Source: a virus (taxonomy: Duplodnaviria > Heunggongvirae > Uroviricota > Caudoviricetes). Taken from it: a stretch of DNA of 33,362 nucleotides. Under the pieces are notes generated by a model. That model had not been told where the DNA came from and did no database searches. It worked only from the letters and a program-made list of their open reading frames with translations. Positions 1 through 30,704 of the stretch are shown piece after piece (position 1 is the stretch's first letter; each line of letters starts with the position of its first letter). Location of the stretch: IMG/VR virus record IMGVR_UViG_3300025018_000115, positions 1-33,362 of that record; one strand, 5' to 3'. A program made the position numbers and the translations under genes.

Positions 1-43
1 GTGCTGATTCTATGTCTACTGTTTTGTTTGTTTTATTACTCAT
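1..43 (-). CDS. 5' fragment of a gene running off the left edge (MSNKTNKTVDIESA...)
   Basis: ATG at 43-41, 4 nt after the stop of the 48..347 ORF; same tight packing as the neighbouring genes. Confidence 0.4.
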   Translation of the reverse strand, partial: MSNKTNKTVDIESA

Positions 44-47
44 TTTT

Positions 48-347
48 TTATTTTGTTATTTTTTTAATATATCTTTTAACCTGTTTATTTGAAGGTTCTT
101 TCTTTCTCCATTCTAAAGGAAATGGGGTTTTTAATACAATACTTGAAAATCTTGCAAAACTTTCTGTTGAATTATCTTTTGAGATTAATTCTTTATAGTT
201 TGTGTAAGGATCCACCAAGTACATGTTCCATTTTCTTTTTTTGTTTTTCTCTCCTATAACCCAAAACTTTGTGTTACATATTTTGATTCTTATTTGATTG
301 TCATCTGTTTTGATGATCTCGCATCCTGGCGGTATTTTTAATTGCAT
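48..347 (-). CDS. hypothetical protein (99 aa)
   Basis: ORF track; A-rich leader; co-directional with the operon. Confidence 0.7.
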   Translation of the reverse strand: MQLKIPPGCEIIKTDDNQIRIKICNTKFWVIGEKNKKRKWNMYLVDPYTNYKELISKDNSTESFARFSSIVLKTPFPLEWRKKEPSNKQVKRYIKKITK

Positions 348-411: not shown

Positions 412-822
412 TTATTTTTTAATTAATAAATGACCTTCCCACGATAGTTGTGCATAACTTCTTGTGAATACTTCTTTGAATATCCAGATTGACCATCTAC
501 ATGTTGTGAGTTCTTTGGCGCCGAATATATGGTGACCTAACTCATGTAATGTGGATACTATGCTTGGTTTTTTTGTTTGTAATATAATGGTTTTCTTTTT
601 TGGATTATAAGCGGCTATATCTCTAAATTTTATTTTTGGAGATGGTTTCTTTTCAGCTTTTGATATTAATTTGATTAGTTTTTTTAATCTTTTGTTTTTT
701 TCACTTTTTTTAATATCTTTCCATCCTTTGTAGTTTTTTGATTTCCATTTTTTTATTACATTTATTGTGTCTGTTCTGATTGCAGGTCTTTTTTTAAGAA
801 TTTCTTCTTTTGTTGGATACAT
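412..822 (-). CDS. HExxH (zincin-like) metallopeptidase-motif protein
   Basis: STLHELGHHIFG motif preceded by a beta-strand-like AAYNPKKKTIIL segment; starts 1 nt after the class II GATase stop. Confidence 0.6.
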   Translation of the reverse strand: MYPTKEEILKKRPAIRTDTINVIKKWKSKNYKGWKDIKKSEKNKRLKKLIKLISKAEKKPSPKIKFRDIAAYNPKKKTIILQTKKPSIVSTLHELGHHIFGAKELTTCRWSIWIFKEVFTRSYAQLSWEGHLLIKK

Positions 823-823
823 T

Positions 824-2167
824 TTAGAAGTCGTTTACTCCATCATGGCCATATTTACTTATATGTCCTCTGAATCCGTGTTCTGATAGTTTGTATCCCG
901 CCCTTACCTTATTTGTATCGTATCCGTATCTTGAGTATGCTTCTTCTATTCCTGCATCTTCTATGGCATCTTCTTCTTCCTCTATTTCTTGTTCTCTTAT
1001 TGTGTCGAATTCTATTTCTCCTTCGTCTACTATTGCGAGCATGGCGTCTGCAATTTTTGCTAGTTTGTTTAGGAGTTTTCCCTTCGTTGTGTATTTATCT
1101 AGCATTATTTTTTCTCTGAATTCTCTGATTATTTCTGAAGCTTTGTCAATTTGGTCTTCCATTTCTGCATATGTTTTTTCGATGATTTCTAGAGATGTTC
1201 CTCCTGCTATTATTTTGTCACTAAAATCTGTTCTTATTCTGTCTACATATTTGTCGTCTACGTCGTCTGTCTCTCCTGTTCCTCCATTTTCCATATCCAT
1301 TTGTAGTGCCCATGATCTCATATTTTCTATTTCGACCTCGTCTTTGTCTTTTTTTGATTTAATATTTGTAAGAAGATTGTTTCCTGTGTAATTTGATTTT
1401 TCTGTTTCTGTCTTAGTAACTATTTTTTCTTCTTCTTTGTATATTAGATCAATATTTGATAATTTCATTTTATTATCTCCGATGTTGAAAGAGAATAGTT
1501 TTTCTCCTTCTACTTGTTCTCCAATCCCTTCACTTGATATCTTCATTGTTCCGCTTTTCTTGTCCATATTTAGATCTCCGTTTTGGTGTTGTCCGAAATA
1601 TACTTTTTCTGCTTTTTGTGTTTTTTTGTTTATTTGGACAATTAGAAATGCGGCTCTGTTTGTTGTTTCTATTTCTTTTGTTTTACCTTCTAAAAATAGA
1701 ACCATCTCTATTGCTAGTGTTTCTGTATCGTTCCATTTAATTGACTCTCCTGTGTATGTTGGTTCACATTCTGTTGTGTATTTGAATCCTAGTTCTTCGT
1801 GTTTTTTCTTTATATCTGTTATTCCGGTTACAACTCCGTTGTGCATAAAGAGATAATCTTTCTTTAGGATTTTGTTTGATACGAACATTGGGTGAGTCTG
1901 TCTCATCTTGTTATCTGTTGATGTTGGCTGTCTGTGATGCGCTAATATCATTGGTGCCTTTTTAAGAGTCAGATCGATTAAGAATTTTGTTTCTTGTGTT
2001 GCTCTATCTGTCTCTATTTTTCCTTTTTCGTTTATTCGTATTATTCCAAAACCTCTTGTTCCTCTCGTATATTGGTCTTGGTATTGGTTCATTACGAAAT
2101 CATTTGCGTCTTTTCCTTTTTGTGATTTGCTTGTTTTAGTGTTGAATTCTCCTATTAGTCCGCACAT
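824..2167 (-). CDS. class II (Ntn) glutamine amidotransferase with acidic helical C-terminal extension
   Basis: N-terminal MCGLIG (Cys2 nucleophile), RGTRGFG, AHHRQPT, THPM, HNG and DTE motifs. Confidence 0.88.
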   Translation of the reverse strand: MCGLIGEFNTKTSKSQKGKDANDFVMNQYQDQYTRGTRGFGIIRINEKGKIETDRATQETKFLIDLTLKKAPMILAHHRQPTSTDNKMRQTHPMFVSNKILKKDYLFMHNGVVTGITDIKKKHEELGFKYTTECEPTYTGESIKWNDTETLAIEMVLFLEGKTKEIETTNRAAFLIVQINKKTQKAEKVYFGQHQNGDLNMDKKSGTMKISSEGIGEQVEGEKLFSFNIGDNKMKLSNIDLIYKEEEKIVTKTETEKSNYTGNNLLTNIKSKKDKDEVEIENMRSWALQMDMENGGTGETDDVDDKYVDRIRTDFSDKIIAGGTSLEIIEKTYAEMEDQIDKASEIIREFREKIMLDKYTTKGKLLNKLAKIADAMLAIVDEGEIEFDTIREQEIEEEEDAIEDAGIEEAYSRYGYDTNKVRAGYKLSEHGFRGHISKYGHDGVNDF

Positions 2168-2186
2168 TGTTTCATATTTTTAGTTA

Positions 2187-3803
2187 TTAGAATACGTAAG
2201 ATGTTACCTCTTGATCTTCTTCGTGAGATAATTCTTCGATTGTATTTTCGATTGCATTTTTGTGATTATTTAGGCTTATTGATCCTTCATCTATCACTAC
2301 TTCTTCTTTTTGTTCGACCTGTCTTGTTAATACTTTGTATACCTTTCCTTGTCTTGCAAGTGGTAGGTTTGTATCGTTGATTAGTCTTTTTGCTTTTTCA
2401 ATTTTTCCTTTTTCTAGATTCCAGATTATTTCCATAAATTCTTTTGTTTTTGGATTTGTTCTCATTTCATATGGAATACCTATAAGAATTGTTTTTTCTC
2501 TTGCGTCTTCAATTTTTCCTGTGATGAAGTTTAAAGATGCGTTTCTTGGAATTCCTACTGTTTGTGCAAATTTATTTTCCATCTTTTTGAATAGTGTTTT
2601 TGCTGAGTCTTCGTCTAATCGTGTTTTTATCACTGAATTTCCTATTAGTAGGTGTCCCTTTGTGTTTCTTGCGATTATTTTCTCTATTCCTTTTCTCATT
2701 CCAAAGATGTAGTAATTGTTTTTTATTTTCCAATTATGAGTTGCTATCTTGTCTTTTAGAATATCTGAGAATATTCCTACGTTTTCGTCTTGATTGTAGA
2801 ATACACTGATTGCTCCTTTAATAGAATCGATATCAATTTCTGTCTTTTTTACTTTTTCTTTTTTGGTTGATGTTGTTAGTTCTCTTTTTGTTGGTATTTT
2901 TGAATTTTTGAATTCCCAACCTAGTGCAATATTGTATTCTGCTTTCTCTTTGTCTTTAACTACCTGTTTCGCATTAAAGATATATTCTATTTCTTCTTTG
3001 AAAGCATCGTACATTTCGAATTTTTGGATTTCTTTTTTAATGTCTTTAATCAATGTTTTTGTCAATGATTTGAATTCCATTAGAGCTAGTGTTTGTAGTG
3101 CATCTCCTTGTTTGTCACTTTTAATTAGAATGTCATGACACTTTTTGAATGTCTCTGGTTTGAACATTATTTCGTGATATACGACTCCCATATATGCAAG
3201 TGTTGCGTTTGCAATTTTTGGTGTTGTTAACCATTCTGCTGATGGGCATCTGAATTCTATTGTGTATCCTGGGTTTCCATTTTGGTGAGTGAATTTTTCT
3301 TCTAATCTCATGTCATTGATTTTTCCATATCCTTGTTTTGTTCGAAGGCTTAGATTTGTTTTGTTTTCTGTAATTAGGATTGGTAGATAGAAAGAAGATA
3401 ATCGTCTTTGTATTGTGTTTTTTAATGCTCCGTCTATTCTTTTATATCCATCTGGTACCTCAAGATGAATATGTCCTCCTACTGCGCTGTGCTCTGATAG
3501 GGTTGACATGTCACATAAACTACTATATTTACTGAATTCTTTTAACATTCCTCCTATGTTGCTAACAACTCCTTCTGGGGTGTTAGATGGCTTTGGTCTA
3601 ATTTCTGCTGTTGATGATGCTCCGTCCCATCCTAGGTTTCCAAATTGTTTTATGTCAAAACCTTGGCTTGATGGGCTAAAGTCTTTTTTGTTTTTTAACA
3701 TAAGACTCATTGTTCTCTGTGCATCAATCTTTTTTTTCTGTATTGTTAATACAAATTCTGGATCGGCTCCCAGTTTAAAATTGAATTTTTTATTTGTTGT
3801 CAT
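2187..3803 (-). CDS. phiEco32-like COOH-NH2 ligase type 2 (glutamine synthetase-like fold) with long C-terminal extension
   Basis: LGADPEF, GWDG..AEIRP.PS, GGHIH and EFRCPSAEWL motifs; start moved to ATG 3803, directly after the stop of the 3806..4456 ORF. Confidence 0.85.
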   Translation of the reverse strand: MTTNKKFNFKLGADPEFVLTIQKKKIDAQRTMSLMLKNKKDFSPSSQGFDIKQFGNLGWDGASSTAEIRPKPSNTPEGVVSNIGGMLKEFSKYSSLCDMSTLSEHSAVGGHIHLEVPDGYKRIDGALKNTIQRRLSSFYLPILITENKTNLSLRTKQGYGKINDMRLEEKFTHQNGNPGYTIEFRCPSAEWLTTPKIANATLAYMGVVYHEIMFKPETFKKCHDILIKSDKQGDALQTLALMEFKSLTKTLIKDIKKEIQKFEMYDAFKEEIEYIFNAKQVVKDKEKAEYNIALGWEFKNSKIPTKRELTTSTKKEKVKKTEIDIDSIKGAISVFYNQDENVGIFSDILKDKIATHNWKIKNNYYIFGMRKGIEKIIARNTKGHLLIGNSVIKTRLDEDSAKTLFKKMENKFAQTVGIPRNASLNFITGKIEDAREKTILIGIPYEMRTNPKTKEFMEIIWNLEKGKIEKAKRLINDTNLPLARQGKVYKVLTRQVEQKEEVVIDEGSISLNNHKNAIENTIEELSHEEDQEVTSYVF

Positions 3804-3805
3804 TT

Positions 3806-4456
3806 TTAATTTGTTGAATAAAATCTTTGTTCTATTAATTGTCTGTATTCTTTTTTGGTGTTTAGTGTTTGGCATTCTTCACATTCAATATATTCTTCTT
3901 CATTTGCTCTTGCATCACAAATGATGATATGTTTGCATTCTTTGCAGATTATTGTTGTGTCGGTTGTGTCATCTCCTCTTTCGTTTGAGAATAAACTACT
4001 TATTTGGTTATTTGAGATGTTTACTCTGGCTTCTTCATCTTCTTCTAGTATGTTAGTTGGTTCTTCCATTGATCTTTCCCATCCTTCTCCGGCTGTTAAT
4101 ATGCCGTTTCTTCCTGTTTGTATTTCACTTGGCGCAAATGTAACTCCCGGTCTTGCTGGTTGATCAGAAACAGTCAAAGTTTCTGGTAGTGATGGTGAAT
4201 CTCTCCATACTAGTTCATTAAGAAAAAGAGTTCTGTCACATTCCATACATTCGTATTCTGGGCTTCCGTCCCAGTTTGTTTCTTCATTATCTGATTCATA
4301 GTCTCCCAAACTATCCATGTCTTCTGGTGACATTGCTCTTCCTCTTGCATTTGAGCCAGGTGATGGGAGATCGAAGTTTCCGTATTCGTGTCCTATAACA
4401 GGTCTGCTGTATCTAAGTTGGCATACTTCGTTCTCGCAATTTGGACATTCCCACAT
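3806..4456 (-). CDS. acidic protein with four CxxC pairs (two putative Zn ribbons)
   Basis: CPNC, CMEC, CKEC, CEEC; packed between the two amidase/ligase genes. Confidence 0.75.
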   Translation of the reverse strand: MWECPNCENEVCQLRYSRPVIGHEYGNFDLPSPGSNARGRAMSPEDMDSLGDYESDNEETNWDGSPEYECMECDRTLFLNELVWRDSPSLPETLTVSDQPARPGVTFAPSEIQTGRNGILTAGEGWERSMEEPTNILEEDEEARVNISNNQISSLFSNERGDDTTDTTIICKECKHIIICDARANEEEYIECEECQTLNTKKEYRQLIEQRFYSTN

Positions 4457-4463
4457 ATTGTTT

Positions 4464-5264
4464 TTAATTAGTCAAATATTTTTCTATGAAATATTTGATG
4501 ATTGGACTGTCTTTGTATTCTTCTGGGTGATATTGAACAGCAACTATTTTTAGTTTTTCTGATTCAAATCCTTCAATAAGGTGTTGTGTTGCCATTATTA
4601 TTTCTATTTCTGTTCCTTCTGAATATTCTTTGACAGCTTCTGATAATTCTCTTCTTACTTTTTTTCCATCTTCTTGTATTGTAAATCCTTGGTGGTGCCA
4701 AGAGTTTACTTTGTATTTTTCTGTTCTTATTCTTTCTTTGTATATTTCTTCTAAGAAATCTTTGTATTTTCCAAATATTTCAACAAAATGCATTGATTCC
4801 TTTCGATTACTTATGTCTGAGTATCTTCCATCGTGACCGCTTTCTATTGATGAGATGCTTTGTTTGAAGTTTTTTAGATTTGCGAGTTGTCCTAATAGTT
4901 GGAATCCTCTACATATCCCGAATATTGGTTTCTCTTGTTTAACGAATTCTAGTGCTAGTATTTTTTCGAAAGTATCTCTGTTTTCTGAAAAACTATTTGA
5001 TGCATCTACTTCTTCTCCATATGATGTTGGATTTAGATCTACGCCTCCAGATAAAACTAACATATCATATTGTTTGGCGATTTCTTCTGCTTTCTTTTTT
5101 GTGTTTTTTTCTTCTTCGTCAGTTGCCATTTCTCCTTCTTTTTCTACTAAGCAAGGAATTATAACTGGTAGCGTTTTTTCAGTGTCGAACGCTCGTATAT
5201 ATGCTGAGTTTATGAATTCTTGCGTTTTGTTTTGTGAACTTGTTATTGCTACTAATTTTTTCAT
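4464..5264 (-). CDS. class I glutamine amidotransferase-like / peptidase C26 (gamma-glutamyl hydrolase, PuuD-like)
   Basis: LSGGVDLNP.SYGE, RD.FE, GICRGFQ (Cys nucleophile), NSWHHQG, VQYHPE (His-Glu); start moved to ATG 5264. Confidence 0.9.
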   Translation of the reverse strand: MKKLVAITSSQNKTQEFINSAYIRAFDTEKTLPVIIPCLVEKEGEMATDEEEKNTKKKAEEIAKQYDMLVLSGGVDLNPTSYGEEVDASNSFSENRDTFEKILALEFVKQEKPIFGICRGFQLLGQLANLKNFKQSISSIESGHDGRYSDISNRKESMHFVEIFGKYKDFLEEIYKERIRTEKYKVNSWHHQGFTIQEDGKKVRRELSEAVKEYSEGTEIEIIMATQHLIEGFESEKLKIVAVQYHPEEYKDSPIIKYFIEKYLTN

Positions 5265-5266
5265 TG

Positions 5267-5527
5267 TTATTTTATTCTTAGTTCTAGCCATCCTCCTTCG
5301 ATTTTTCTTTCTGTCCATTTTTTACCTGTTCTTTTTGACATATCAGCAAGATGCGCTGAGGGGTTTGATTTGTATGGCCATTCTGATTTTGGAACGAATA
5401 CAGCTTGATTTACTTTTTGTTTTTTAAAGAAATCGTGTGCCTTCATTGGTCCTTGGTTTTCTCCTGCCATTCTTTCAAATTGTACTTTTGTTAGAAATCT
5501 TAATTTGTCTTTTTTAATTTTTATCAT
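5267..5527 (-). CDS. small basic hypothetical protein, possibly nucleic-acid binding
   Basis: ORF track; A-rich leader; stop 2 nt before the next ATG. Confidence 0.7.
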   Translation of the reverse strand: MIKIKKDKLRFLTKVQFERMAGENQGPMKAHDFFKKQKVNQAVFVPKSEWPYKSNPSAHLADMSKRTGKKWTERKIEGGWLELRIK

Positions 5528-9377: not shown

Positions 9378-9486
9378 TTTCTTCGAAGTCTTGCAATGAA
9401 TGTATTGTGTTTGAGCGATCCCATTCTTCTACTATGGTATCATATTCTTCTTGCAATTCTTCGTTTGTCATTTTTGTGTAGTCCAT
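9343..9486 (-). CDS. acidic micro-protein (47 aa, MDYTKMTNEELQEEY...)
   Basis: translated by hand; fills the gap; ATG 2 nt after the upstream stop. Confidence 0.65.
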   Translation of the reverse strand: MDYTKMTNEELQEEYDTIVEEWDRSNTIHSLQDFEEIVRELQNRENQ

Positions 9487-19402: not shown

Positions 19403-19888
19403 ATGAAAATGAAATGTGAAGGGTGTAAAAAAGAAGTTGAAAGAACAAGTAATAGTCAGAGGTACTGTAATAAAAAATGCCGCACATCTTGTTATTACAA
19501 AAGAATAAGGGAGAAGTCAAATCTGTATCAAAGAGAGAGGTGGTACAGAAAAAACATCGCAACAAAAAAGAACAAAATCAAGTGTGAGGTTTGCGGTCGT
19601 TCATATAGACAGGTCGGGTCACACATAACGCAGAGACATGGAATGACAGCAAGAGAGTACCGCGAGGAGTACGGTTTTGATGTGAAGAGAGGTCAGTTGC
19701 CAGAAGATTTGCGCCAACATAAGGCAGAAAAAACAAGAGAGAATGGCACAATAGAAAATCTAAAGAAAGGTAAGAAGTTCTGGCTTAAGAAGGGTGAGAG
19801 TATCCCGTACATTAGAAGTCAGCAGACATTGGATAGGTTAAAAAATAATTTTAAGAGAAATGAAAAACAAACAAAAAAGAAAAAATAG
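19403..19888 (+). CDS. Zn-finger + Ros/MucR-like domain protein
   Basis: CEGC...YCNKKC; CEVCGRSYRQVGSHITQRHGMTAREYREEYG. Confidence 0.8.
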   Translation: MKMKCEGCKKEVERTSNSQRYCNKKCRTSCYYKRIREKSNLYQRERWYRKNIATKKNKIKCEVCGRSYRQVGSHITQRHGMTAREYREEYGFDVKRGQLPEDLRQHKAEKTRENGTIENLKKGKKFWLKKGESIPYIRSQQTLDRLKNNFKRNEKQTKKKK

Positions 19889-20684
19889 AAATGTTGAATA
19901 TGAAATAGAATATGAAGATGCCCCATCAGGGAATATTACGTTTTATAACTATAAGGAACCACTTATGGAATATCGTGACGGTTTTGGTTATGTTGGCGCC
20001 ATTATCTTCGACGGAGAGTCAGACAAAATACAATGCCATATATGCGGTGAATGGTTTGCAAATCTTGGACGACATATCGGTCCATCTCACCAGATAACGG
20101 CATATGATTATAAAGAGATGGTGGGGTTGAATCAATCAACAGCTTTGATTAATGAGTCAACAAGAGAAAAACTTATTCGAAAAAACATGAAGAAGAGAAA
20201 GGCCAATCTTAGACCCGGAGGCAAAAAGAGCAAAGAAGTTAGAGCAAAAATAAGTGAGACATTAAAGCGATTAAATGCTGAAAAGAAAAATCTTCGAAAT
20301 ACATGTCCTGCTCAGTTGATAGAAAGACTGCAGAAGCAAGCGAGAGAGGAGGGCCGAACTCCATATTCAAAAAGCGTTCCTTTTATCGCTGCACTATGTA
20401 AGACTTTCGGGTCATATCAAGAGTCCTGCAAGATAGCGGGTATTAAGGCAAGAAAACCTGGTCAAACAGAAAGGACAGCATATAAGTTTTCAGATAATTT
20501 TGAGTTTACAGATAAGCAGTTTTTGAAATTGATTGTTGATTTTGTAAAAAGAGAAAAACGTCTTCCTAGCTTTTCTGATTCACGTAGAGGGTTGTTCCCA
20601 TACAGAAAGGAGTATATAGAAAGGTTTGGAACATGGAAAAAAGCAGTGAAGTTATCAGGGGTAAAAATAATTAGACATGAGTAG
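19860..20684 (+). CDS. Ros/MucR-like domain + NUMOD3-like motif + two homing-endonuclease-associated repeats
   Basis: CHICGEWFANLGRHIGPSHQITAYDYKEMVGL; KSKEVRAKISETLK; FGSYQESCKIAG and FGTWKKAVKLSG. Confidence 0.75.
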   Translation: MKNKQKRKNRNVEYEIEYEDAPSGNITFYNYKEPLMEYRDGFGYVGAIIFDGESDKIQCHICGEWFANLGRHIGPSHQITAYDYKEMVGLNQSTALINESTREKLIRKNMKKRKANLRPGGKKSKEVRAKISETLKRLNAEKKNLRNTCPAQLIERLQKQAREEGRTPYSKSVPFIAALCKTFGSYQESCKIAGIKARKPGQTERTAYKFSDNFEFTDKQFLKLIVDFVKREKRLPSFSDSRRGLFPYRKEYIERFGTWKKAVKLSGVKIIRHE

Positions 20685-27835: not shown

Positions 27836-28537
27836 ATGCCAACAGGAATATATAATAGAACTAAGGATCATAATGAAAAAAACTCTAAGGCTCAGCTAGG
27901 AGAAAAGAATCATAGATTTGGAAAGAAAGATACTGAGGAACAGAGAAAAAAGAAGAGTGAATCCCATAAGGGGCTCACTCACTCGAAAGAAACAATAGAG
28001 AAGATAAGGAAGTCTAATCTCGGGCAGAAACGCTCTCCAGAGGTCTGTCGAAAAATAAGCCTGGCAAAAACTGGAAAAAAGATAAAGCCTAGGAGTGAAG
28101 AAGTTAGAAAAAAAATGTCAGAACAGATGATGGGCAAGCCCCATCCTCATGTTGGATGGGTACAATCAGATGAAACGAAGGAAAAAATAAGAGCAAGCCT
28201 TGTTGGGCGTAAAAATCCAAATAATTCAGGTAAAAATCACTATGCGTGGAAAGGGGGGAAATCAAGGAGTAATATTATAAGAAGATCTTCTGAATATAAG
28301 ATATGGAGAAAAAGTGTATACGAAAGAGATAACTATACATGCCAAAGGTACGGCACAAAAGGAGGAAAACTTCATCCTCATCATATTATAAATTTCTCGG
28401 AGAATGAAGAACTTCGTTTCGATGTATCAAACGGAATTACATTATCTGTAAAAGCACACATAGAATTCCACAAAAAATATGGATACAGTAAAAATACTAA
28501 AGAGCAAATAGATGAGTTTATTAGTTCAGGTTATTAA
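27836..28537 (+). CDS. free-standing NUMOD3-repeat HNH homing endonuclease
   Basis: about five S.E.+.K+S...G repeats; WRKSVYERDNYTCQ...HPHHI...NGITL...H. Confidence 0.88.
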   Translation: MPTGIYNRTKDHNEKNSKAQLGEKNHRFGKKDTEEQRKKKSESHKGLTHSKETIEKIRKSNLGQKRSPEVCRKISLAKTGKKIKPRSEEVRKKMSEQMMGKPHPHVGWVQSDETKEKIRASLVGRKNPNNSGKNHYAWKGGKSRSNIIRRSSEYKIWRKSVYERDNYTCQRYGTKGGKLHPHHIINFSENEELRFDVSNGITLSVKAHIEFHKKYGYSKNTKEQIDEFISSGY

Positions 28538-28580: not shown

Positions 28581-30704
28581 ATGGCTAATAAATACTCGAC
28601 ATATAACACATACACCCCGTCTGATTACGGGGAGGACGAACAAGACATGCAGACAAGATTCCACTTGCAGATGCAGGATTCTCGTCAGCATTTTTTGAAC
28701 ATAATAAAACCAAGACTAGACAGATCTTATAAACTATACATTGCTTATAACGGAGATAGACAAACACAGATAAAACCGTGGCAGTCAAACATTTTTGTAC
28801 CTTACGTACAAGCTGTGGTTGAAACACTAATGCCTAGGGTTCTTGACGCAAGACCAGATTTTTCTGTTCAAGGAAGAACCGCAGAAGACCAAGCTAAATC
28901 TGAAAAACAACAGCAGCTAGGTGATTATATCTGGGAGATTTCAAAGATGGATAAGGTTACAGAAAACGTCGTCAGGTCATCTCTTATCTACGGAATGGGA
29001 TATTTACAGGCTTTTTGGAAAAAAGATGTTAGGGAACAGAAGTTTTTACAGACAAAAGACCTTCTAAAGCAAAAATATGCTTGGAAGAAGGAAAAAAGGA
29101 CATTTTATGATGCTCCGTGTGCAGAATGGGTAGACAACTACTCACTGATGTACGATTGGCATAATACTGACAGAGAAAGCAAGCAATATTGGTTCAAAAG
29201 ACTAGTATTAACTGCGCCTGAGATAAGGAGAAAATACCCAAACGCTGATAAAGAAAGACTTGAACTTGCACTAAAAAGCCCAGGAGGTGATTTGACTGAT
29301 TACGCGGCTATAAGAACACAGGTAAAACAGGGTTCTAATATGCTCGTTAAGGGCTCAAGTATGTGGAATGGACCTTCTTATGGATACGCTAGTGATAAAT
29401 ACAATAGTTTTGGTTATCCAGAGCTACAAATGTATGAAGTTTTCGAATGGACACAACCATTTGATGATTTTTACTCTGTTCATGTTGGCAGTAGTTATGT
29501 TCCTATCCTAAAGGGAGGTTATATGCCTATTCCCTATGACTTTAAGGAGGCCACCTTTATAGATTTTCCTTATCTAAAAGTACCTGGAGAATATGAAGGC
29601 TATGGTTTGCCATTGATTTTGGAAAACCCACAGATAATGATGAACATGATAAAGAACCAGAGATTAGATGCTGCAACTTTGTCTATTCACAAGATGTGGA
29701 TCGTTAACCCACTTGCCAATATTAACAAAGAAGAGCTTGTAACCCGACCTTTCGGTATTATTTACTCAATTGACCCTAACGGAGTTAGGGAAGTTCAGTT
29801 CAGTGATATAAAAGCATCTGCATACAAAGAAGAAGACCTTCTAAAGTCAGACATGAGATATGCGTCTGGAGTTGATGACTTCTCTATGGGTGCTGGAGGA
29901 GGAGCAAATAGTGCTACTGAGGTTAGACACCTTCGAGAATCTACTCTTGAGCGAGTACGACTATTCGTTAACCACCTAGGGGATGGTTTTTCAGATTTGA
30001 TGAGATATTGGATGGACATGTCACGTCAGTTCTTTACTGAGGATATGATAATAAGAATTGTTGGAGATGATGGAAAAGAAATGTTCCCACTAATTCAAAA
30101 AGAAGACCTGATGGGTAATTTTGATTATAGAGCAACTGTATTGCCATCAATTGCAGGGCAACAAGACATCAAGAAGAAACAAGATATGGACCTATTCCAG
30201 TTGTTAATCAACCTTCCGTTCGTAGACCCACAGAAACTTACTCAAAAAGTTCTAACAGACTGGAACTGGTCATTGGATTCTGTGGCTAAATCAGAAGATG
30301 CTCCAGCTCCAGCTATTGGACCAGACGGACAGCCAATGGTTGGACCAGACGGACAGCCAATGGAGGATCCTGCAGCAGGAGGAATACCAGCAGGTGCTCC
30401 TCAAATAGCCCCACCAGACGCAAGTACAAAGAATATCCCCAAGGGTGTTGCAAGTCAGGTTATGTCTATGCTTGGCGGGTCTATGGCGCCAGCTAGTCCT
30501 TTTGGACAGGCTTCTTCTCCAATTAACCTTCTGCAGGCAGGTGGTCCACCGCCAACAGCAGCGAGAATCCCTCTCCCAACATCTAATCCACGGGGTTTTA
30601 ATATGGGGGGAAAGGTTAACACAAACATTTCATCGAACCCCCAAAATAGTAATCCAGAGTCTCAGTTAATGAACAGAGCCTCTTCATTACAGAGTGGTAG
30701 GTAA
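28581..30704 (+). CDS. portal protein (podovirus P22/SU10-like) with a low-complexity C-terminal tail
   Basis: position after TerL; SNIFVPYVQAVVETLMPR, Q..MN.IKNQRLD, SGVDDFSMG...SATEV motifs. Confidence 0.88.
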   Translation: MANKYSTYNTYTPSDYGEDEQDMQTRFHLQMQDSRQHFLNIIKPRLDRSYKLYIAYNGDRQTQIKPWQSNIFVPYVQAVVETLMPRVLDARPDFSVQGRTAEDQAKSEKQQQLGDYIWEISKMDKVTENVVRSSLIYGMGYLQAFWKKDVREQKFLQTKDLLKQKYAWKKEKRTFYDAPCAEWVDNYSLMYDWHNTDRESKQYWFKRLVLTAPEIRRKYPNADKERLELALKSPGGDLTDYAAIRTQVKQGSNMLVKGSSMWNGPSYGYASDKYNSFGYPELQMYEVFEWTQPFDDFYSVHVGSSYVPILKGGYMPIPYDFKEATFIDFPYLKVPGEYEGYGLPLILENPQIMMNMIKNQRLDAATLSIHKMWIVNPLANINKEELVTRPFGIIYSIDPNGVREVQFSDIKASAYKEEDLLKSDMRYASGVDDFSMGAGGGANSATEVRHLRESTLERVRLFVNHLGDGFSDLMRYWMDMSRQFFTEDMIIRIVGDDGKEMFPLIQKEDLMGNFDYRATVLPSIAGQQDIKKKQDMDLFQLLINLPFVDPQKLTQKVLTDWNWSLDSVAKSEDAPAPAIGPDGQPMVGPDGQPMEDPAAGGIPAGAPQIAPPDASTKNIPKGVASQVMSMLGGSMAPASPFGQASSPINLLQAGGPPPTAARIPLPTSNPRGFNMGGKVNTNISSNPQNSNPESQLMNRASSLQSGR
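30316..30363 (+). repeat. perfect 24-bp tandem duplication in the portal tail
   Basis: ttggaccagacggacagccaatgg x2 (GPDGQPM). Confidence 0.9.

Follow-up and report, generated by a model that had tools for sequence, protein, structure and literature searches.

What do five tightly packed leftward genes, which encode enzymes of two amidotransferase classes, a ligase, a zinc (Zn)-ribbon protein and an HExxH protein, do together in the genome of a tailed phage? This question is raised by positions 412 to 5264 of the DNA that we analyzed, a stretch of 33,362 nucleotides (nt; hereafter the window) that covers the first 33 kb of a phage record of 97,362 bp in IMG/VR (IMGVR_UViG_3300025018_000115; 100% complete according to CheckV). 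The initial annotation, which was based on the sequence only, had interpreted the run as a complete write/erase system, where a ligase adds a glutamyl or amide tag, a class II glutamine amidotransferase (GATase) supplies ammonia, and a C26 enzyme or the HExxH protein removes the tag. The present data place the genes in a longer block that is conserved across related loci, and in which a ligase of the PF14395 family adjoins a class II GATase (here referred to as GATII) in 54 of 57 testable clusters. We therein read, with a confidence that falls just short of even, a clade-specific architecture of the known phage amidoligase/class II GATase cassette that would carry out a glutamine-dependent, ATP-driven amidation by means of a two-protein amidotransferase, on a peptide-like target. 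The genes of the leftward unit are the following.

4464..5264, minus strand: Peptidase_C26/class I GATase-like hydrolase (C26), 266 amino acids (aa); PF07722 and PF00117; optional, on the 5' side
3806..4456, minus strand: acidic double Zn-ribbon protein, 216 aa, isoelectric point (pI) 4.2; two CxxC...CxxC ribbons
2187..3803, minus strand: ATP-dependent carboxylate-amine ligase, 538 aa, assigned from PF14395 and the fold match of its AlphaFold2 (AF2) model
824..2167, minus strand: stand-alone class II (N-terminal nucleophile, Ntn) GATase-type glutaminase with an acidic coiled tail, assigned from motifs and profile matches to PurF and GlmS
412..822, minus strand: mini-zincin, 136 aa, HELGHH...E104, assigned from motif conservation and an AF2 model
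48..347, minus strand: orf99, small basic conserved protein, found at the same position in relatives
1..43, minus strand: first 43 nt of the coiled-coil protein gene (F7), the last gene of the leftward unit, assigned from its open reading frame (ORF) and the terminal redundancy

Layout of the leftward unit

The five minus-strand ORFs (5264-4464, 4456-3806, 3803-2187, 2167-824 and 822-412) are all intact, and with the starts set by alignment the gaps between them measure 7, 2, 19 and 1 nt, precisely the dense packing with gaps of 1 to 19 nt that had been described at the outset. The starts of C26 (5264, MKKLVAIT) and of the ligase (3803, MTTNKKFNFKLGADPEF) were fixed by alignment with orthologues. 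No convincing minus-strand terminator was found within the five-gene run, which is laid out like an operon, and the unit continues past the zincin gene into orf99 (347-48) and a coiled-coil gene of 153 aa. The latter starts at window base 43 and has its remainder at record positions 97206-96745. It thus crosses the record junction, because bases 1-199 are a repeat of bases 97164-97362 with 2 mismatches (a 199-bp terminal direct repeat), by which the record closes on itself. IMG/VR labels the record as 'linear', whereas the terminal repeat indicates a circularly closed or terminally redundant molecule.

Conservation of the gene order in related loci

To define the gene set, we used 88 related loci from IMG/VR and metagenomes, which represent 72 ligase clusters at 95% identity. 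The relatives in IMG/VR came from an alignment-based scan, while a scan with the single sequence gave none. Counts are given as the number of clusters with a partner over the number of clusters that were testable for that partner. GATII was found directly after the ligase gene in the 54 of 57 clusters mentioned above, the zincin in 48 of 49, the Zn-ribbon protein beside the ligase in 49 of 56, and the coiled-coil protein downstream in 34 of 41. The protein orf99 was recovered at the same position in 25 of 44 clusters, a count obtained with a weak hidden Markov model (HMM) for a short and divergent protein. A further gene, F5, was present in 26 of 50 clusters and C26 in 9 of 22. The few clusters without GATII or without the zincin correspond to the most remote matches, with 27-38% identity over the best segment (L097, L101, L102). 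In 17 pairs of ligase and zincin clusters the contigs were of identical size. Judged from these sequences, the predicted conserved core is made up of the Zn-ribbon protein, the ligase, GATII and the zincin, followed by orf99 and the coiled-coil gene. The five genes had been taken for the complete module, and since the block is longer than that, and often includes F5 as well, the first observation was slightly under-called. The idea that the HExxH gene might not be syntenic with the ligase, which would have spoken against the initial interpretation, does not hold because the synteny is kept in 48 of the 49 testable clusters.

Shared synteny need not mean shared function. It is conceivable that only the ligase and GATII cooperate, and that the zincin, the Zn-ribbon protein, orf99, the coiled-coil protein and C26 are products of independent early or middle genes, which serve for instance in host take-over. 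In line with this, ORF 79 lies inside the cassette of phage phiEco32 and its product Gp79 is described in PMC12276001 as an inhibitor of host sigma70 transcription; moreover, fused forms of the zincin were not found, and in one relative (L009) the Zn-ribbon gene lies on the opposite side of the cassette. However, the flanking and upstream genes differ completely between relatives, whereas the order within the cassette is kept at ligase identities down to 29-40%. The near-overlapping start and stop codons and the constant position of the C26 orthologues in distant lineages also argue against independent genes, and we regard this alternative as improbable.

Many of the relatives (L035, L036, L039, L041-L043, L053, L088; Hainich 'Hain-H..-01um') derive from groundwater metagenomes of the 0.1-micrometre fraction. 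In one case (P0102/P0372), ligase and zincin are encoded together on a contig that had been deposited in a metagenome-assembled genome of 'Candidatus Paceibacterota'. These observations hint at a host among the ultra-small bacteria of the Candidate Phyla Radiation.

The ligase

All gene identities proposed initially (PF07722, CxxC ribbons, PF14395 with GADPEF, class II motifs, HELGHH) were recovered, and the active-site motifs of the four enzymes are intact. The ligase matches PF14395 (COOH-NH2_lig) with 49.4 bits (cut-off 25; E 4.7e-13; model positions 1-235 of 254; 49.9 bits in the whole-genome search) and contains the GADPEF motif. In its AF2 model (predicted local distance difference test score, pLDDT, 81), residues ~3-300 adopt the glutamine synthetase (GS)/gamma-glutamylcysteine synthetase (GCS) fold, which bears out the suggested GS/GCS-like character of the enzyme. 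The best structural matches (VIA Z 17.8) are YbdK (1tt4/1r8g; Z 17.7-17.8; about 250 residues aligned with the N-terminal domain at 13-14% identity) and, level with it, Dop and PafA (Z 17.1-17.8; 264-270 residues at 9-11% identity), followed by plant gamma-glutamylcysteine ligase (Z 17.1) and glutamine synthetases (Z about 11). Across 21 sequences, D14-x-E16, E67-x-R69, GGH111-I-H113 and E183-x-R185-x-P are invariant; we take D14/E16, E67/R69, H111/H113 and E183/R185 to be the counterparts of the motifs with which glutamine synthetase binds metal and ATP.

Outside the Pfam match, the ligase has a conserved C-terminal alpha/beta domain (residues ~325-470) with invariant G368, G372, G442, P444, Y445 and R448, for which no Pfam match was obtained at E<=1 and nothing usable in the ESM Atlas. 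The ligase profile gave zero matches to PDB sequences. Likewise, tblastn of the ligase against 50,697 GenBank phage records revealed no homologue, and megablast of the cassette region against GenBank phages gave no match. The family is nonetheless large, comprising 203 clusters at 50% identity (E<1e-30, full-length).

The class II glutaminase

GATII starts with MCGLIG, and its glutaminase part occupies the N-terminal ~235 aa. In 14 orthologues, C2, R35-G36, H77-H78-R79-x-P-T-S, H109-N110-G111 and N146-D147-x-E149 are invariant. The profile of these 14 orthologues matches PurF (1.3e-8) and GlmS (1e-7), aligned from residue 1 (Cys1), and neither EgtC nor another gamma-glutamyl amidohydrolase appears among its matches at E<=1; with the single sequence, Pfam GATase_6 stays below threshold (17.2 versus 27 bits). 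The C-terminal 212 residues form an acidic, variable and coiled tail (GATII has a pI of 4.5), in which no Pfam domain at E<=1 and no fused acceptor or synthase domain were detected. By its predicted domain content, GATII is a stand-alone glutaminase. A role as ammonia donor is plausible from the sequence, which would be equally compatible with a role as an EgtC-like gamma-glutamyl amidohydrolase.

The optional C26 hydrolase and the gamma-glutamyl alternative

C26 is a clear family member (PF07722, 1.4e-28, 100.6 bits at a cut-off of 20.5; PF00117, 5.6e-15), and its catalytic motifs GICRGFQ and YHPEE (H-P-E-E) are kept in 7 aligned orthologues. The best match among PDB sequences is Lin1909 (3fij) and the best NCBIfam match is gamma-glutamyl-CDP-amidate hydrolase; the PuuD-type model scores 18.8 bits against a cut-off of 266. 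In the 9 clusters that have it, the gene invariably lies 5' of the Zn-ribbon or ligase gene, and orthologues with E values of 1e-58 to 1e-70 hold this position also in loci with no more than 38-48% identity between the ligases. It is absent from all six related phage records with a completeness of 90% or above, and its distribution on the ligase tree requires at least 3 gains or losses. We rejected both the possibility that C26 is unrelated to the module, in view of the dedicated orthologues at the same position in distant lineages, and the possibility that it is a core member, as it is missing from most relatives. From these comparisons we conclude that C26 is probably a functionally tied yet dispensable accessory, and that the zincin would belong to the core. 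The question raised at the outset, how often C26 co-occurs with the ligase, has a mixed answer: the orthologue is dedicated and constant in position, but it is optional. For the same reason, and with no eraser in evidence among the results for C26 or the zincin, the designation as a complete write/erase system was over-stated, although the gene identities and the link to phiEco32-type modules on which it was built stand.

These enzymes could also operate on gamma-glutamyl amides, a reading that refines the initial interpretation. The ligase would then attach the gamma-carboxyl group of glutamate to an amine, like gamma-glutamylcysteine ligase or PuuA, and the EgtC-like GATII and the PuuD-like C26 would hydrolyse the product later. 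The acceptor could be a small molecule, a peptide or a protein, on which the glutamate would serve as a temporary handle or as a mark that can be taken off again; between the two steps, the marked substrate would be acted on by the zincin. The structural closeness of the ligase to YbdK and GCS (Z 17.8 and 17.1) is unsurpassed, and EgtA/EgtC and PuuA/PuuD, the two characterised systems known to combine a ligase of the GS/GCS fold and a separate hydrolase (a class II enzyme in EgtC, a C26 enzyme in PuuD), both act on gamma-glutamyl amides. The top NCBIfam match of C26 points in the same direction, as do the gamma-glutamyl cyclotransferase (GGCT) of the prototype cassettes and the residues that grip the alpha-amino and alpha-carboxyl groups of the glutamyl moiety, which GATII retains. 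However, a minimal set of ligase and hydrolase would run a futile cycle unless the zincin supplies a middle step. In addition, C26 is missing from most relatives, the GATII profile fits the ammonia-delivering PurF and GlmS with no EgtC match at E<=1, and GGCT is absent from the genome. Orthology with the EgtA/EgtC and PuuA/PuuD systems was not found, the NCBIfam scores being far below the cut-offs and the other pathway enzymes absent. We therefore consider gamma-glutamyl writing and trimming possible but rather unlikely.

The mini-zincin

In the zincin, H93, E94, H97, G101, E104, C108, S111 and H131 are invariant among 32 homologues. The AF2 model (pLDDT 97) has a sheet at residues 63-82, followed by a helix at 88-100 that carries HExxH and a helix at 104-118 that starts with E104. 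Its best structural neighbours are the minigluzincins 4jix, 4qhf and 4jiu (Z 5.9-6.2, 19-22% identity, ~88 residues), and the next ones are SPRTN, CapP, Wss1 and IrrE, so that every top row is a zincin. Even the best match, 4jix (Z 6.2, 22% identity), falls in a score range that the tool calls common, and Foldseek against the PDB gave E values of 0.45 or worse. No Pfam, NCBIfam or PADLOC family was assigned, the only match being a weak one to phrog_87 'metallo-protease' (E 0.0075); the zincin profile gave only chance matches to myoglobin among PDB sequences (E ~0.06 or worse), and the ESM Atlas contained nothing usable. At 90% identity the family falls into at least 218 clusters, and in none of them was a Pfam domain assigned. 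The three-stranded sheet, the HExxH active-site helix and an acidic or His ligand ~7 residues past the second His are shared with the minigluzincins (projannalysin, proabylysin, selecase), SprT/Wss1, IrrE/ImmA and CapP. By contrast, the additional N-terminal helical part, the invariant C108, S111 and H131, and the constant linkage to a ligase and GATII set the present protein apart from these minimal zincins.

A zincin that is 99% identical to that of the window (P0266) is encoded on a separate contig of 97,283 bp, which means that a near-identical phage genome has been assembled independently. In BFVD, a match at E 0.19 places a zincin-like domain within a protein of 812 aa that is labelled 'Amidoligase enzyme' and comes from an uncultured phage, but this match was too weak to serve as an argument for a fusion.

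The non-catalytic partners

The Zn-ribbon protein contains four CxxC pairs that form two ribbons with an acidic linker between them; the first ribbon is present in 9 of 9 aligned orthologues and the second in 8 of 9. No Pfam, NCBIfam, PHROG or PADLOC family was found for it, and from its sequence it could be a scaffold, an adaptor or a substrate. For orf99 there was no family match (none in Pfam at E<=1), and the database matches of the coiled-coil protein were of the coiled-coil type only. F5, a protein of 150-384 aa that is absent from the window, has its gene next to or in between those for the Zn-ribbon protein and the ligase in relatives (e.g. L002 5806-6960, L006 5743-6510) and has no Pfam match at E<=1. 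Apart from coiled-coil noise, PADLOC gave no match to a defence system.

The presence of three small conserved proteins without enzymatic motifs (the Zn-ribbon protein, orf99 and the coiled-coil protein) alongside a ligase raises the possibility of protein tagging as in the Pup system. A PafA-like ligase would conjugate a small phage protein, through its C-terminal carboxylate or one in a side chain, to a lysine of a phage or host protein. GATII would deamidate a glutamine and thereby generate the reactive glutamate, in the way that Dop prepares Pup, and the zincin would mature or remove the tag. Dop and PafA indeed tie with YbdK as top matches (Z 17.1-17.8) and provide a precedent for GS-fold enzymes that ligate, deamidate or remove a protein tag, and the extra C-terminal domain of the ligase could bind protein. 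Nevertheless, an identity of 9-11% cannot separate PafA from other GS-fold ligases, and the partners here are an Ntn glutaminase and a zincin. Among the neighbours, to which the inspection of C-termini was confined, those of the Zn-ribbon protein, orf99, the coiled-coil protein and GATII are variable and not Gln- or Glu-terminal; the small partners lack a conserved C-terminal Gln/Glu or a Gly-Gly-Gln-like end, and no disordered Pup-like tag was detected among the neighbours inspected. Pup-like tagging is accordingly a distinctly unlikely explanation.

Zn-ribbon proteins are also frequent binders of nucleic acids, and class II GATase domains and amide chemistry are known from DNA hypermodification pathways of phages. 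The cassette might then amidate or glutamylate a DNA base or RNA (compare alpha-glutamylthymine and the Gat-QueC route to archaeosine), protecting the genome or repairing or altering tRNA. Upstream of the cassette, an operon specifies a Ro60-like protein together with its partner RNAs, and the gene for RtcB lies on the other arm. However, this link to Ro60 and RtcB is not conserved, because the upstream neighbours of the cassette vary among relatives. Furthermore, the genome lacks a hydroxymethylase of the thymidylate-synthase type as well as tRNA-guanine transglycosylase and DpdA, and scans of the replication region revealed no kinase or pyrophosphorylase-type gene. A nucleic-acid target thus appears highly improbable.

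Relation to the cassettes of phiEco32 and LUZ24

Amidoligase/GATase cassettes occur in phiEco32, LUZ24-like phages and marine podoviruses, and their activity was predicted in 2009. The LUZ24-like phages encode a COOH-NH2 ligase, an Amidoligase_2 protein, a class II GATase, an ATP-grasp protein and a GGCT (PMC3890496). As cited in PMC10580990, the 2009 prediction (Iyer, Abhiman, Burroughs & Aravind) was a role in cell-wall modification or superinfection exclusion. In phiEco32, a single leftward block contains the genes for a COOH-NH2 ligase of 268 aa, for Amidoligase_2, for a GATII of 676 aa, and for ATP-grasp and GGCT proteins. As in these cassettes, the PF14395 ligase of the window adjoins a stand-alone class II GATase with a long non-catalytic tail in an early or middle operon, for which the function is likewise only predicted. 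The proposed link to phiEco32-type modules is thereby confirmed. The differences are considerable: the ligase has 538 aa here, including the conserved extra C-terminal domain, as opposed to 268 aa in phiEco32, and the cassette additionally encodes the obligate mini-zincin, orf99, the coiled-coil protein and a double Zn-ribbon protein with a gene of its own, as well as the optional C26. No HExxH motif is present in the cassette proteins of phiEco32.

Conversely, the ATP-grasp, amidoligase or GGCT genes whose presence to the left of the window had been put up for checking were not found there, and the record closes on itself. Neither PF12224 (Amidoligase_2) nor PF06094 (GGACT/AIG2) was matched at E<=0.1 in the whole 97-kb genome. 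PF08443 (RimK) gave no match in the genome either, and Pfam scans of ~45 ORFs revealed no ATP-grasp protein, with other ATP-grasp families and the other ORFs lying outside these scans. For the portal, the major capsid protein and the adaptor, matches were obtained to the SU10 (Kuravirus/phiEco32-like) families PF23899, PF17236 and PF24175 (window 28581-30704; record 33190-34461 and 51835-52974; L103), and the identity of the portal to those of N4-like phages is 22-26%. From its sequence, the 97-kb genome looks like that of a deep-branching relative of the phiEco32 lineage. Because its capsid, portal and adaptor are of the SU10/phiEco32 type and PF12224, PF06094 and PF08443 are absent, we regard the phage as a probable remote relative of the prototype lineage with a remodelled cassette.

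The GATII of phiEco32 (phi32_83; L105, NC_010324, 24494-26524) has Cys-rich CxxC motifs in its tail, at residues 440-515 and 641-670. These ribbon-like motifs may be the fused counterpart of the separate Zn-ribbon protein of the window; no homology between the two was detected by HMMs.

Outside phages, the closest relatives in structure include YbdK/GCS2 and the gamma-glutamylcysteine ligases, with which the N-terminal domain of the ligase shares its top structural match and presumably the ATP-dependent acyl-phosphate chemistry. Unlike these enzymes, the phage ligase has an extra C-terminal domain and a constant glutaminase partner, and no sequence match in the PDB. The architecture described here, a single ligase with an obligate glutaminase, an obligate mini-zincin and a Zn-ribbon protein, is represented by ~200 ligase clusters (50% identity), none of them with a cultured representative. 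As it contains one ligase instead of three, it is the simplest version in which a substrate could be sought by reconstitution in vitro, and a substrate that is found here would probably explain the whole cassette family.

Proposed mechanism

In the amidation that we tentatively favour, the GS/GCS-fold ligase would use ATP to convert a carboxylate into an acyl-phosphate and join it to an amine. The Ntn glutaminase GATII most likely splits glutamine and passes ammonia to the ligase (R-COOH + Gln + ATP -> R-CONH2 + Glu + ADP + Pi); a less likely role of GATII in this step is the trimming of a gamma-glutamyl amide. A precedent for such a two-protein reaction is MurT/GatD, which performs the glutamine-dependent amidation of a peptidoglycan carboxylate. 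Cleavage or maturation of a substrate that resembles a peptide or protein is the probable task of the mini-zincin, whereas a role as scaffold, adaptor or substrate is probable for the Zn-ribbon protein, the C-terminal domain of the ligase and the coiled-coil protein. C26 would be an optional gamma-glutamyl or glutamine amidohydrolase that feeds or trims the pathway. We infer the coupling of the enzymes, the direction of the chemistry and the peptide-like target, which might be a protein or a precursor of the host envelope. That the substrate is a peptide or protein is suggested by the invariant presence of the zincin and the Zn-ribbon protein.

Several points weigh against this amidation pathway. 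To our knowledge, every characterised class II GATase that delivers ammonia is fused to a synthase domain. The stand-alone class II enzyme EgtC and the C26 enzymes PuuD and gamma-glutamyl-CDP-amidate hydrolase are hydrolases of gamma-glutamyl amides, which favours the gamma-glutamyl reading, and a model in which glutaminases serve purely as ammonia donors has no need of a second one such as C26. The match of the modelled zincin fold is modest (Z ~6), and no zincin fused to the ligase or GATII and no longer forms of it were found, which is weak evidence in itself. The literature that we searched contains predictions only and no experimentally established function for any member of the cassette. 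Finally, synteny alone leaves a shared function unproven: inside the phiEco32 cassette lies ORF 79, whose product is described in PMC12276001 as acting on host transcription by inhibiting host sigma70.

A more far-reaching variant is that the ligase, the glutaminase, the zincin and the Zn-ribbon protein form one complex that places a covalent amide mark on a protein. Acidic residues could be amidated, or the mark could arise from gamma-glutamylation or from conjugation as in the Pup system. Either the acidic Zn-ribbon protein would itself be modified or a protein of the host, such as one involved in transcription, translation or the cell envelope. We consider this unlikely; if true, it would represent a virus-encoded post-translational modification system of an undescribed kind in hundreds of uncultured phage lineages.

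Surroundings of the cassette

Immediately upstream of the cassette lies one further small gene.

5267..5527, minus strand: orf86, basic protein of 86 aa, separated by 2 nt from the start of C26; a neighbour of the cassette that is not conserved in relatives

No homologue of orf86 was found in the related loci, and it has no match in Pfam (E<=1), PADLOC or other families. Neither tRNAs nor Rfam families were found in the window. A plus-strand block that is convergent with the cassette (record 87713-95272; L022 3714-11273) encodes a ParB_N protein, two SPFH/Band 7 proteins, YopX, an SNF2 helicase and a GroEL-type chaperonin. Between positions 9400 and 13500 of the window, ORFs of at least 80 aa are sparse, and the G+C content reaches 0.42-0.47 at 12-14 kb. 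A NUMOD3 homing-endonuclease-like ORF (window 27836-28537) is located between a 478-aa ORF and the portal gene, and a protein with MucR/ROS and HNH repeats (window 19860-20684) is encoded after RtcB. Mobile endonuclease genes thus appear to have been inserted in the late and middle regions of the genome.

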